Shown one piece after another: positions 41,315-45,412 of a DNA stretch of 64,000 nucleotides (its first letter is position 1; the number at the start of each line of letters is the position of its first letter). The DNA comes from an uncultured Chromatiaceae bacterium (GTDB taxonomy: Bacteria > Pseudomonadota > Gammaproteobacteria > SZUA-140): contig CAZSAK010000004.1 of the NCBI GenBank assembly GCA_964605155.1, positions 8,538-72,537 of the forward strand, written 5' to 3'. A program made the position numbers and the translations under genes. Under the pieces are notes generated by a model, which was given only the letters and a program-made list of their open reading frames with translations, ran no database searches and was not told the DNA's origin.

Positions 41315-41767
41315 GTGACTATATTGGCAATCAGCAAGATGAAGATAGATTTCAGGTTTATATTCAACAAGGTTGTGGGCATCGTTTTCAGTTTGATGCT
41401 GATATTTCTCACCCTGAGCATCATCATTGGCGTTTTTCGTCTGTTCTTTATGCTGGGTGAGCTGATCGTGCATAAGGAGCTGGTACATGATTACCAGCGT
41501 ATTATATCCGACGTGCTGACATTGTTTATCCTGATCGAGCTTTCACGCTCTCTGGTTGAGTATTTTGATACCAATCGCTTGCGTTTGACGTTCATTGTGG
41601 ATGCCACGATCGTATTTGTTTTACGGGAGATGATGATACGTCTTTTCGAGCACGAGGTCGTACCCAATGAGATCTTTTCACTGAGTGCCCTGTTACTGGT
41701 TTTGGGGGCGATCAGAACAGCTGCCGTCGTAGTCTATCAACGTGAAAAGAAAACAATGGCGAGGTGA
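41315..41767 (+). CDS. psiE: PsiE family (phosphate-starvation-inducible E-like) membrane protein
   Basis: 150 aa, 4 TM segments. LIELSRSLVEYF...FIVDATIVFVLREMMI resembles the E. coli PsiE core. Confidence 0.55.
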   Translation: MTILAISKMKIDFRFIFNKVVGIVFSLMLIFLTLSIIIGVFRLFFMLGELIVHKELVHDYQRIISDVLTLFILIELSRSLVEYFDTNRLRLTFIVDATIVFVLREMMIRLFEHEVVPNEIFSLSALLLVLGAIRTAAVVVYQREKKTMAR

Positions 41768-41808: not shown

Positions 41809-42114
41809 TTAATTTGAACGGGTTTGAAGATAGGTGATTATCCGGTCCAGTTCCTGCTTGGGTATGGGTTCCAGCCCGTCTACGACGCGATGATTTTGCA
41901 TACGCAACACAATGGACGGCCATTCGGTTGACGGATGTGCGGATGGCAATGGAGGGGCGTGGCAATCAGCGCACCATTGACGCAAGGCATCGTTGGTGGT
42001 CTGCTGGTACCGTGTATGCATCGATTGTCCGGTGGAATTGCCCGCTTCGTTACCACAACCAACCATGACTGCTATCGAGGAACACAACAATATCCCTGCC
42101 AGTATTCTACCCAT
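41809..42114 (-). CDS. Putative lipoprotein monoheme c-type cytochrome
   Basis: Start at the internal Met gives MGRILAGILLCSSIAVMVGC (lipobox MVGC), followed by a single CADCH (CXXCH) heme-binding motif. The ORF opens at 42207. Confidence 0.55.
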   Translation of the reverse strand: MGRILAGILLCSSIAVMVGCGNEAGNSTGQSMHTRYQQTTNDALRQWCADCHAPPLPSAHPSTEWPSIVLRMQNHRVVDGLEPIPKQELDRIITYLQTRSN

Positions 42115-42430
42115 GGATAGCAATATATCGAACCATACTGCATGAATATTTACAGAATAAGCCGTAGCCTGGGAAGAGAGGCCGTTATTGTAGATCCGCA
42201 TTAGCATTTATCCGATCGATAATATAAACGTTATCCGTATATGACATTTTGCTACCCGTTGCGAGGTAGTGTAAAGTAACTTGAGAAACCACCGTGCAAA
42301 GCCGCATGACTTTGCGGGTATGCAGATATTTTCAAGATACGGCTTTATTGCACCAACTACCCTGATAAACAAGGTTACAGTGATGTTTGCTGACAAATAT
42401 ACCATTACCCTGGCAGTGCCGAAGTTCCTG

Positions 42431-42835
42431 ATGAGCAATATAATCGGAGCAATTCTGGTTATTGCCGCGCTTATGGGGTGCAGCGAGGAATCAACAGGCA
42501 TGGCACCGGATGAGCTGGGGCGTAAATTCTATGATGCAATCATCAATGAAGACTTTCAGACTGCTGCCTCATTTTACGGCGGCAATGAGCCCGTCGATGC
42601 CCGTGTGCAGGAACTGAAAGAACAGCGAGATTCATTAGGTGACCTGAAAAGTTATAAACTTGAGGACACCATCGTAAATACGATATTCAGTGGTAAACGT
42701 TATATTTTCACCTATCGCTTGCAATATGCACATGCAGACGTAAGGGAAATGCTGATCATGTTCAAGAGTGTTCGGGCTGGACCTCTCCATATAGAGGTAC
42801 GAAATGACAAGATAAAACATCAGGATGGCGAATAA
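42431..42835 (+). CDS. Lipoprotein (NTF2-like/DUF4878-like)
   Basis: Start at the internal Met gives MSNIIGAILVIAALMGCSEE (lipobox LMGC), then ELGRKFYDAIINEDFQTAASFY. The ORF opens at 42281. Confidence 0.5.
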   Translation: MSNIIGAILVIAALMGCSEESTGMAPDELGRKFYDAIINEDFQTAASFYGGNEPVDARVQELKEQRDSLGDLKSYKLEDTIVNTIFSGKRYIFTYRLQYAHADVREMLIMFKSVRAGPLHIEVRNDKIKHQDGE

Positions 42836-42856: not shown

Positions 42857-43627
42857 TTACTTGATACTCATCACCAGCATCTTCCCCCCGGTTTTTTCCG
42901 CCAGCTTGTTGTATTCATATTCAGTATCCGGATCGGAGCGACCCATGGGCAGGGTAAACACGGGGCTGGGTATGCTCTGATAATCGATGGTGTCATCAGA
43001 GGGTTCGTCACCGATGAGGATATATGCGCCCGGTGCCGCAGCATTCTGACTTGCAACCCGGAAGGTATGCCCGATATTCTCCACATTGCCCACGAACGGG
43101 GCGCCTACCATCAGCAGATCGAACATCTCCGCCATTGTGCCGGTATAGGTCTTGGTCGATTTATCGGAAAACCATGTTATTGCTGTTAATTGTTTGTCCG
43201 CCCGGATGACAATCATACGCAATACAGGGATCAGGAATGCAGACACCCCGTGCATGGATCCGGTTGCATCGACGATCATATGAATATCCTTACCAGGAAT
43301 ATCCTTCAGTCCTTTGACAAACAGATCAAAATCCTTGCGGCCGATATTGGCAGTGTCAAGGATGGTATTCAATTGTCCTTCGGAGTCGGTGACAATCATC
43401 CTCTGAAAATCCGCCAGTACCCTGTCTTTATCGGATTCGGCGATATTCAGCTTTTCCTTTAGTGCTTCAAGCTGTGCCTTGAGTCTTGGCAGTTCATTCT
43501 GTTCAGACACCCGGCTGGTGATCAGTATAGTAACCAGCAGGAAAATGAATGTGGCCAGCATCAGCAGAGCGACGTCGGAGAAACTCTCATGAATGCTATT
43601 GGTAGATGTTTTACGTGTACGAGCCAT
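42857..43627 (-). CDS. MotB/TolR-like stator-plug membrane protein with periplasmic coiled coil and VWA-like (MIDAS DxTxS) domain; no OmpA domain
   Basis: 256 aa. N-terminal TM SFSDVALLMLATFIFLLV has the invariant stator Asp in MotB-like spacing. Next is the coiled coil LPRLKAQLEALKEKL. Then an alpha/beta domain with HMIVDATGSMHG, TYTGT and ILIGDEPSDD motifs. It lies 15 bp downstream of the MotA-like gene on the same strand. Confidence 0.6.
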   Translation of the reverse strand: MARTRKTSTNSIHESFSDVALLMLATFIFLLVTILITSRVSEQNELPRLKAQLEALKEKLNIAESDKDRVLADFQRMIVTDSEGQLNTILDTANIGRKDFDLFVKGLKDIPGKDIHMIVDATGSMHGVSAFLIPVLRMIVIRADKQLTAITWFSDKSTKTYTGTMAEMFDLLMVGAPFVGNVENIGHTFRVASQNAAAPGAYILIGDEPSDDTIDYQSIPSPVFTLPMGRSDPDTEYEYNKLAEKTGGKMLVMSIK

Positions 43628-43642
43628 TATCAGGAAACTCCA

Positions 43643-44671
43643 TCAGGGGGTTTTTTTGCTTCGCATGGCACGTTTCAATCTAGGCCACCATGACCGATTG
43701 ACTTTATTCATCATTTTTATCTCTTCCTTGAGAAGTTTTGCATAGTATTGCTGGAGAATGACTGAATCCCTTAACGTGGGCCTGTCTTCGTCACTTCCCT
43801 CTGCAGCAAGGTCGTTTAATCGCCGGGCCTCCTCCCTGAAGCCGGACATAATATCCCTGGAATCGGTCATGGCCTGTTTCAGGTAATTAACATTGGAGCC
43901 CAACGTCGCAATTTCTGCATTCAGCACCCTCATGTCCCGTTCCAGGGTGGGTTTGCAGTCGGAAGAACAATAGACCATACATATTTTTTTCAGGATATCG
44001 GAAAGATTCTCGACACCATGTTCCGTGATGAGGGCGAAAACGCGTAGCAATACACCACCGAGTACGGCACCCAGCAAGGTGGTGTAAAAGGCAGTTCCCA
44101 TACCGCCCATCGCCCGGCGGAGTCCCTCTACCAGACGTTCCTGATCAACCCCGAGGGCCTCCAGCGAGCTTGTAAGACCGGTAAGGGTAAAGGTGAGTCC
44201 GATGACTGTACCTATCAGACCCAGCGTAATGAGCAGGTTGCCAAGAACCTCGACAAAATTACTGGTGCGGTGGTATGAGGCAAGCTCTACATCAAGCAAC
44301 GCCTCTATATCCGGTTGCACATTCTGTGCAAGTATATCCTTGAGTGAAACAAAGAATTGCTCCACGGCATGAAACGGGTGGGGAATATCTATACCGTTGA
44401 GGCCTTCCTTTTTGGCAACATCACCCAGTTGTGTCGCATGCAGGGCCTCGGTTGTGATCGTGATGGCAAGTCCCACACTGACGATTAAACCCAGTATGAA
44501 AAGTCCTATGATAATCCACGTGATCTTGCTCTTATCCTGCTGTAGCTGAATCCATAGATCGGTATCAAGGTACAGGGTTAGATATACCCCGATCGCTGCT
44601 GCTGCCCAAAACAGCCATAACAACAGGGTACGATAGGGTTTTTCATAAATGGGTTGTCTCTTGGCGGCCAT
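43643..44671 (-). CDS. MotA/TolQ/ExbB proton-channel family protein with about 135-aa Cys-rich coiled-coil cytoplasmic tail
   Basis: 342 aa. TM1-2, a cytoplasmic loop, then TM3-4 carrying the family signature (LGNLLITLGLIGTVIGLTF...GMGTAFYTTLLGAVLGGVLLRVFALI). The C-terminal tail contains CMVYCSSDC plus heptad-like repeats. Confidence 0.75.
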   Translation of the reverse strand: MAAKRQPIYEKPYRTLLLWLFWAAAAIGVYLTLYLDTDLWIQLQQDKSKITWIIIGLFILGLIVSVGLAITITTEALHATQLGDVAKKEGLNGIDIPHPFHAVEQFFVSLKDILAQNVQPDIEALLDVELASYHRTSNFVEVLGNLLITLGLIGTVIGLTFTLTGLTSSLEALGVDQERLVEGLRRAMGGMGTAFYTTLLGAVLGGVLLRVFALITEHGVENLSDILKKICMVYCSSDCKPTLERDMRVLNAEIATLGSNVNYLKQAMTDSRDIMSGFREEARRLNDLAAEGSDEDRPTLRDSVILQQYYAKLLKEEIKMMNKVNRSWWPRLKRAMRSKKTP

Positions 44672-44900
44672 CTGTGGTGCTACCGACTGTTATGGAATAC
44701 TGCGCACTTACGTAACTATCAACGAGATATGTCAATCAGGGGGTTTTGAACTTTGAACTGTAATCGATCTCATGATAATGGATCAGCGCGATTTTTGCAT
44801 GTTTGCAAGCAGCGGCAAATTGAATATAAAACGTGATGGTTGATTGATAACCTGCCATTCAAGAATCGCGATTCCCAACAGGATGGAGGTGGCAGGCGGC

Positions 44901-44952
44901 ACGCAAACGACAACACGGTACGTATTCGATTCAGCCGTGTTGTCGTTTGCGT
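44901..44952. repeat. 18-bp perfect inverted repeat (ACGCAAACGACAACACGG / CCGTGTTGTCGTTTGCGT) with 16-nt loop
   Basis: Read directly from the sequence. No flanking U-tract on either strand. It lies between the small-peptide gene and the MotA-like promoter region. Confidence 0.8.
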
Positions 44953-45071
44953 AGCGTGGATTTCAGACTTGCGTCGGCCTCGTCAACGGTGGCTCGCAGC
45001 AAGCGCGTTATCAACCGGTCGTCAACAAAAATGTGATATCGACCGGATATTGCTGTGGATCTGCAGGGCTA

Positions 45072-45179
45072 TTAAGCCATGCTGTAGCCGAGAAAACCCA
45101 GGAACAATATGATGATTGAGGCCGCAATAATGATTACCGTGTCATGCTTGGTGATATCTACCCAATTATTATTAGACAT
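45072..45179 (-). CDS. Small hydrophobic peptide (35 aa, single TM)
   Basis: Minus-strand ATG preceded by GGGGGATAAAG. Product MSNNNWVDITKHDTVIIIAASIIILFLGFLGYSMA. Below the 60-aa ORF-track cutoff. Confidence 0.4.
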   Translation of the reverse strand: MSNNNWVDITKHDTVIIIAASIIILFLGFLGYSMA

Positions 45180-45223
45180 CTTTATCCCCCCGTCGTTGTC
45201 TGTCATTGACCTAGTTGCTTTAT

Positions 45224-45251
45224 ATTATACTAACTCGCTGATCCGGGACAA
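45224..45251 (-). promoter_or_regulatory. Putative sigma-70 promoter for the small peptide gene (-35 TTGTCC, 16-bp spacer, -10 TATAAT)
   Basis: Minus strand reads TTGTCCcggatcagcgagttagTATAAT, about 45 nt upstream of the ATG. Confidence 0.35.
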
Positions 45252-45412
45252 TTCTTTTCGTTCACATATGTCATGTATGTATATCTTTGGTGTATGGCCC
45301 GATCAGCATGGTAATGACCGACCATATGGGTAGGACATATGGCGCCCTCGCTTGATTTATGTAATTTATTGAAATATCGCTGAAACAAGGACAAGATGGC
45401 CGACTGGTAATC

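Follow-up and report, generated by a model that had tools for sequence, protein, structure and literature searches.

Ion-driven rotary motors of the 5:2 type power flagella, Ton and Tol transport, gliding and Zorya immunity, and each newly understood family of these motors has revealed another way to couple the proton gradient to work. The stretch of 64,000 nucleotides analysed here (the window) encodes a MotA-like protein which continues well beyond its last transmembrane (TM) helix and carries, just after it, three cysteines spaced as CxxxCxxxC. The question is what this tail is, whether its cysteines form a metal-binding or redox-sensitive site, and whether the locus is related to the Zorya defence systems. 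The interval 43643-44050 corresponds to the codons of residues 208-342, with the stop, of gene A (43643..44671, minus strand), a 342-aa membrane protein of the MotA/TolQ/ExbB superfamily and putative pentameric motor subunit. The tail peptides quoted for this interval in a previous sequence-only reading matched the translation exactly.

We examined the membrane part of gene A with family models and structure prediction. Residues 116-224 matched the Pfam family MotA_ExbB (PF01618) with 37.2 bits against a cutoff of 22.9, and this domain was present in all listed homologs except one. The AF2 monomer model, obtained from 106 homologs with a mean pLDDT of 85, shows a core made of four TM helices and a small cytoplasmic insert (residues 11-215; 44027..44641, minus strand). 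In this model TM1 lies in helix 11-37, TM2 in helix 50-89 and TM3 in helix 131-172, the insert contains helices 102-115 and 122-129, and helix 177-234 comprises TM4 and a 19-residue cytoplasmic extension. The near-invariant segments L-I-T-L-G-L-I-G-T155 and G-M-G-T-A-F-Y-T-T198 belong to the two pore-lining helices, and their threonines T155 (LIGT) and T198 (FYTT) were invariant in the homolog alignments. These residues are the likely counterparts of the threonine ring of ExbB, TolQ and MotA, with a ring geometry deduced from the position of the motifs. The predicted fold is that of the A subunits of 5:2 motors, and by fold gene A is about equally distant from all of them. Since the N-terminus is basic, a cytoplasmic location of both N-terminus and tail would follow from the positive-inside rule.

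After TM4, the AF2 model presents a break at residues 235-242, a helix at 243-291, a loop at 292-299 and a second helix at 300-338. An extended tail of about 135 residues had been described from the sequence; the extension is confirmed, while its post-membrane length in the model is about 127 aa (residues 216-342). The tail starts with a membrane-proximal cytoplasmic linker (residues 216-242; 43946..44026, minus strand), delimited by column counts over 106 homologs and by the helix break, which holds C231, C235 and C239 together with the near-invariant D238 (104/106 homologs) and P241. Tail helix 1 (residues 243-291; 43799..43945, minus strand) contains seven canonical heptads, with L243, L250, L257, L264, S271, F278 and L285 at position a, and M247, I254, V261, M268, M275, A282 and A289 at position d. 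In the window protein alone, its hydrophobic periodicity of 3.5 residues was reached by 1 of 5000 shuffled sequences (p = 2e-4), and the heptad phase is unchanged from residue 232 to 293. An acidic and variable hairpin loop follows (residues 292-299; 43775..43798, minus strand); its residues 294-298 have a pLDDT below 50, and within the tail the column entropy peaks in this stretch, which also has indels. Tail helix 2 (residues 300-338; 43658..43774, minus strand) is amphipathic and has a weaker periodicity (shuffle p about 0.03), with a conserved C-terminal end, N325-R-S-W328-W329-x-R-L-K. The coiled coil that had been read in this region is borne out by the periodicity of helix 1 and, more weakly, of helix 2.

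The homolog search gave 659 matches among 5.8 billion proteins. The best 120 of these measure 294-371 aa and span 83-100% of the query, all but three of them 94-100%, with identities down to 50%. The possibility that the tail is an annotation or frameshift artefact, or a local extension of the ORF, was rejected on the conservation of the whole protein at identities as low as 50%. In the alignments of 31 and 106 sequences the invariant or near-invariant tail positions are D238, R245, E253, L257, L264, F278 (106/106), L285, L300, E317, N325, W328 and W329. Searched in isolation against Pfam, NCBIfam and PADLOC, the tail gave no significant family, only generic coiled-coil noise, and its PDB sequence-profile matches were likewise generic coiled coils. 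Contacts between helix 1 and helix 2 were also sought by mean-field DCA, but with the 191 family sequences available (Neff 79) artefacts from gaps and subfamilies swamped the signal. The tail of gene A is real and conserved, and is predicted to be a short coiled-coil hairpin.

The cysteines were then considered. The codons of C231 (43979-43981), C235 (43967-43969) and C239 (43955-43957), all on the minus strand, are the only cysteine codons of gene A. The sequence-only reading had described them as a cluster that could bind a metal or be redox-sensitive, with a signalling or gating function; on this view, a functional site for metal binding or redox sensing would lie at the motor's cytoplasmic mouth and gate ion flow or rotation. 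Cysteine is kept in 98 of 106 homologs at position 231 and in 95 at position 235, one helical turn apart, and a pentamer would hold 10-15 thiols in rings, which speaks for such a site. At position 239, in contrast, only 11 homologs have cysteine and 90% of the 106 have L, F or T, and C235 is replaced by leucine in 10/106. A sister subfamily with the same vWA partner, which scores 290-360 bits against the gene A family profile, reads SSLVYAAAD, SCMVYASAQ, ALHLHAANE or TCLVYGSAE at this place. Remote relatives share the post-TM4 motif E-[VL]-Y-[IVL]-x-P, in which S, C or G occupies position 231 and I, L or V position 235, with P241 retained. Moreover, there is no conserved His or Cys partner nearby. 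Because the heptad register holds throughout residues 232-293, C235 and C239 prolong the a/d seam of the coiled coil in four-residue steps. Two cysteines spaced i and i+4 along the same face of a helix and aligned with the hydrophobic seam are typical core residues. The three cysteines are present as described, but the family as a whole does not share a CxxxCxxxC metal or redox site, and the triad is a local peculiarity; the outcome for this proposal is mostly negative, and we give a gating metal or redox site little credence. The cysteines are probably small or hydrophobic core positions involved in helix packing at the entrance of the tail, where they resemble the Leu250/254/258/261 rings at the tail entrance of ZorA (PMC11946911). 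A functional role for the conserved C231/C235 pair is possible.

Gene A is followed, 15 nt after its stop, by gene B (42857..43627, minus strand), which encodes a 256-aa partner and putative dimeric axle or stator subunit, with 739 homologs of about 256 aa. No Pfam domain was found above cutoff in this protein. Its N-terminus is basic, and the motif E14-S-F16-S-D18 opens its single TM helix, a trans-pore helix at residues 14-38 (43514..43588, minus strand), where D18 (codon 43574-43576) and F16 are invariant in 112/112 homologs. Weak ExbD and ZorB matches are confined to this segment, Pfam ExbD reaching 13.8 bits, on the N-terminus only, against a cutoff of 25.4. The same pore-helix motif occurs in the B-like partners of remote relatives, with which hhalign aligns residues 9-36 only. 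In the AF2 monomer model, whose overall pLDDT of 78 rises above 90 at residues 110-250, one continuous helix extends from residue 13 to 79 and leads to an alpha/beta domain. The part of this helix beyond the membrane (residues 41-79; 43391..43507, minus strand), modelled with lower pLDDT, is a predicted periplasmic coiled-coil stalk.

The periplasmic domain (residues 114-250; 42878..43288, minus strand; pLDDT above 90) has a predicted vWA fold. Foldseek related it to VWF A2, CMG2, Cav alpha2delta, NorD and TFIIH p44 with E values of 7e-5 to 1e-3. It carries a MIDAS-type motif, D120-A-[T/S]-G-S124 (43256-43270, minus strand), plus G206-D207-E208; D120, G123, S124 and D207 are present in 112/112 homologs, of which 80 have T and 32 have S at position 122. 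The isolated vWA domain gave no significant family in Pfam, NCBIfam or PADLOC, and gene A, gene B and five scanned ORFs gave no ExbD, TolR or MotB family match above curated cutoff. The conserved pore-lining threonine segments of gene A, together with D18 in the pore helix of gene B, therefore give the pair the sequence features typical of a proton-driven A5B2 motor, and the axle of such a motor would end in a periplasmic adhesion domain. Its stoichiometry, rotation and bundle geometry would be those expected by analogy with homologs.

In the flagellar stators MotAB and PomAB the A subunit also has four TM helices, flagellar MotA is the best PDB sequence-profile match of gene A (E 3e-3, over the TM2-cytoplasmic-TM3 region), and the B subunit likewise has a single TM helix that bears an Asp and leads into a periplasmic helix. 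In contrast, gene A scores 11-16 bits against NCBIfam MotA models with cutoffs of 237-380 and is also far below the PomA cutoff, its cytoplasmic insert is about half the size of theirs, gene B has a vWA domain instead of the MotB-type OmpA-like domain, and the pair lies outside a flagellar gene cluster. The A subunits of ExbBD and TolQR differ from gene A by their three TM helices and short C-terminus; the ExbD/TolR fold is missing from gene B, and no TonB or TolA gene is adjacent.

To our knowledge, Zorya is the sole characterised system whose A subunit bears a functional cytoplasmic tail. As in ZorAB, the A subunit of the window pair continues past its last TM helix into an alpha-helical coiled-coil tail with rings of hydrophobic core residues, and ZorA models are the best, though weak, profile matches of gene A. 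The scores remain below cutoff, with 22.3 bits for NCBIfam ZorA_2 (cutoff 100) and 20.8 bits for ZorA_4 (cutoff 500), and the best PADLOC match reaches 28 bits over the TM3-TM4 region only. The ZorA tail (residues 223-729) is a 507-aa, 70-nm pentameric coiled coil required for motor assembly and for the recruitment of ZorC and ZorD (PMC11946911), whereas the tail of gene A is predicted to form, past the linker, a hairpin of about 100 aa broken at residues 292-299; the earlier remark that it resembles a much shortened ZorA tail was a fair analogy. ZorA has three TM helices and a cytoplasmic domain with a beta-hairpin and Ca2+, compared with four TM helices and an all-helical 57-aa insert in gene A. 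ZorB has a dimeric peptidoglycan-binding (OmpA-like) domain where gene B has a vWA fold, and Zorya co-encodes soluble effectors (ZorC/ZorD, ZorE), none of which accompanies the A-B pair in 80 loci. By its scores against the family models, by the length of its tail, and by lacking both a ZorB with a peptidoglycan-binding domain and co-encoded effectors, the pair falls outside Zorya in all the tests of membership that were run.

We then analysed the distribution of the pair in a scan of one genome per species, which found relatives of gene A in 195 species, 80 of them listed. The 80 are uncultured Gammaproteobacteria MAGs, save one labelled Devosia and one labelled Proteobacteria, and the named carriers among them include Chromatiales, Chromatiaceae, Ectothiorhodospiraceae, Ca. 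Tenderia, Thiohalomonadales and Thiotrichaceae. Among the 80 of 195 species listed, and apart from the Devosia label, the pair is thus confined to uncultured MAGs of sulfur-oxidiser-type Gammaproteobacteria. Gene B comes after gene A on the same strand in 77-79 of the 80 loci, with gaps of about -8 to +28 nt in most of them, and any further gene recurs in at most about a third of the loci. The pair is flanked by a variety of housekeeping genes, among them GGT, CoaD, RsmD, hydantoinase, HemE and GltD. No copy of the pair was found in 72,556 plasmids, in 50,697 phage records or in IMG/VR. This absence and the genomic context led us to reject a defence island or mobile element. The restriction to one clade, together with the variable context, suggests vertical inheritance.

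Several features of the neighbourhood were recorded. A small lipoprotein gene (42383-42835, plus strand; lipobox ...A-L-M-G-C-S) is convergent with gene B, 21 nt past its stop; its homologs are likewise convergent in 17/80 loci, nearly all from the closest clade (A at least 58% identical), and the lipoprotein could be a vWA ligand or mere local synteny. A 132-aa ORF (41809-42207, minus strand) has a C-x-x-C-H haem motif (C-A-D-C-H), with weak matches, below cutoffs, to dihaem cytochrome c and cytochrome c551 models, and lies close to the pair in 4/80 loci. Two genes from the pair, a gene for a PsiE-family (phosphate-starvation-inducible) membrane protein (41315-41767, plus strand; Pfam 65.9 bits) was found in 0/80 related loci. 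Upstream of gene A there is a 740-bp gap (44672-45412), in which some assemblies call a 74-aa opposite-strand ORF; sigma-70-like matches in the gap are at chance level, the best one near gene A being 9 of 12 at 44850-44823. Between 42200 and 45500, 0 intrinsic terminator-like sites were found against 2.9 expected.

Another parallel is provided by a study of 2025 in Mol Biol Evol (PMC12204202, Fig. 4c-d), of which the retrieved passages describe, in silico, TM-tethered vWA proteins found from an Idiomarina loihiensis seed. According to these passages, the vWA genes co-occur tightly with tolQ-like genes in the absence of tolR or exbD, mostly as heterologous pairs, in Proteobacteria and Verrucomicrobia; the proteins carry a TolR/ExbD-like trans-pore helix with a conserved Asp and are predicted to assemble as 5:2 complexes, the architecture being described and the function left unassigned. 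The A-B pair shares with them, as far as these passages go, a MotA/TolQ-like gene linked to a TM-tethered vWA gene without tolR, exbD or motB, an Asp in the pore helix and a threonine ring in the A subunit, the ring geometry being deduced in our case. One remote locus, L094 (4747-6668), ties the window family to this published architecture, since it encodes a tail-less 248-aa A, a protein with a pore helix, a coiled coil and a vWA domain with D-G-S-G-S-M, and a second B-like gene. The vWA genes of the passages are mainly paired, whereas the window family and its sister subfamily have a single B gene; paired B-like genes were seen here solely in the remote relatives L093-L095. Gene B has a coiled-coil stalk, whereas the figure legend speaks of disordered stretches close to the vWA domain, and the conserved hairpin tail of about 127 aa in gene A does not appear in the passages returned by keyword. 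The window pair fits, by its architecture, the concept of a TolQ-like protein with a pore-helix-vWA partner as the passages present it.

On this basis we propose that the pair forms a motor of the 5:2 type driven by the proton-motive force. A dimer of B would be tethered to an envelope ligand through its coiled-coil stalk and vWA/MIDAS heads, and the tail hairpins of five A subunits would form a cytoplasmic bundle of about 7 nm, with C231, C235 and C239 among its core residues. The bundle would mainly assemble and stabilise the A pentamer and close its cytoplasmic vestibule, and it may double as a rotating output surface. Taken as a whole, from the vWA-tethered B dimer to the bundled A tails and the cysteines as core residues, we regard this explanation as just on the probable side. 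Three points weigh against it. In the pentamer, the hairpin of the AF2 monomer model could instead be opened out as an extended rod; at 90% or more, C231 and C235 are strongly conserved for residues that merely pack; and the conserved polar residues R245, E253, E317 and N325, with the WW motif, suggest a specific interaction beyond a structural role.

A more novel reading is a housekeeping transmembrane signalling motor of Zorya-like design. In such a motor, engagement or release of an envelope ligand by the periplasmic vWA/MIDAS heads would switch the proton-driven rotation of the A pentamer, and a ten-helix tail bundle, with a conserved thiol ring at its entrance and a conserved N-R-S-W-W surface, would relay this mechanical state to an unlinked cytoplasmic partner. 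We consider this improbable; if true, it would constitute a new mode of signalling across the inner membrane in sulfur-oxidising Gammaproteobacteria. Somewhat better placed, though still rather unlikely in our estimate, is a force transducer of the Tol/Ton kind, in which A is a static housing with a structural or anchoring tail and the rotating B dimer is the output, its vWA heads pulling an outer-membrane or periplasmic target. It is the model put forward, in the passages retrieved from PMC12204202, for pairs of TolQ-like and pore-helix-vWA proteins; vWA/MIDAS domains are protein-binding modules, and the convergent lipoprotein downstream of B in 17/80 loci could be the ligand. The predicted B stalk, however, is a rigid coiled coil, with no long flexible linker to wind or to reach the outer membrane, the lipoprotein is missing from the flanks of most of the 80 loci, and nothing tells which ring is stationary. 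This reading overlaps with the motor explanation that we prefer, except in which part moves or is the output.

The likeness to ZorAB could also be taken further, the pair being a miniature Zorya-type antiphage sensor in which the motor detects envelope damage through B and the rotation of its short tail switches on effectors whose genes lie elsewhere in the genome. The shared coiled-coil continuation of the A subunit is accompanied, however, by scores of 22-28 bits against NCBIfam cutoffs of 100-700, a hairpin tail of about 100 aa compared with 507 aa in ZorA, and a gene B devoid of a peptidoglycan-binding domain. The 80 loci have no ZorC/D/E-like gene. A defence function is disfavoured because the family is restricted to a single gammaproteobacterial clade and has housekeeping surroundings in a variable context, with no conserved third gene and zero copies in the plasmid, phage and IMG/VR collections. 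We therefore hold the antiphage reading to be very unlikely. Overall, the interpretation offered from the sequence alone is partly supported, for the tail and its coiled coil and not for the cysteine site.

The place of the tail in the wider superfamily was assessed by an exhaustive gene A profile search of 1.84 billion cluster representatives. It returned 970 proteins at E <= 1e-3, of which only about nine are full-length representatives above 230 bits; below these the scores fall to 155 bits or less and define a broad superfamily with the same four-TM core. Among 89 near-full-length representatives, the length after TM4 forms a continuum from 29 to 331 aa (25 below 45 aa, 21 of 45-90, 27 of 90-160 and 16 of 160 or more), so the tail of gene A is mid-range for its own superfamily. 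Relatives match ZorA models weakly, at best with 2e-11 in PADLOC and 1.3e-8 in NCBIfam, and the window gene A and one relative, P0251, score 20-26 bits against NCBIfam ZorA models with cutoffs of 100-700. The pair is a compact, conserved two-gene unit which combines an adhesion-type (vWA/MIDAS) periplasmic module with a cytoplasmic coiled-coil hairpin. Because tail length and periplasmic domain vary across the 970 representatives like interchangeable modules, it is a tractable entry point to the role of motor tails. The unit as a whole is more interesting than the cysteine triad, its general architecture having been noted only in silico in 2025, to judge from the passages retrieved.

Other arrangements were observed among the remote relatives. 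In the Kiritimatiellota (Pontiella) loci L084-L086 (e.g. L085:5001-8928), A proteins with tails of 250-330 aa and apolipoprotein-like repeats (PF01442) are followed by a B-like protein of about 400 aa, which shares with gene B solely the pore helix E-S-F-S-D-[IV]-A-L; a PEGA-repeat lipoprotein comes next in two of the three (L085, L086). This looks like another periplasmic module on the same motor chassis. In L093 (5079-6579) and L095 (5212-6720), as in L094, two different B-like genes come after A, and both encode a Y-E-[ST]-[LF]-S-D pore helix, which implies a heterodimeric axle; an obvious D-x-S-x-S MIDAS motif is seen in only 1 of these 6 B-like genes. Finally, a subgroup of A proteins (P0265, P0268, P0270, P0274, P0277, P0280, P0290 and P0311) bears N-terminal extensions of 90-330 aa, with CxxC...CxxC zinc-ribbon motifs in the six members read (P0265, P0268, P0270, P0274, P0277 and P0280). 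These proteins are almost tail-less and end soon after A-E-L-S-E-V-Y-I-L-P-x-L-R, as if the cytoplasmic add-on had switched to the opposite end of the protein.
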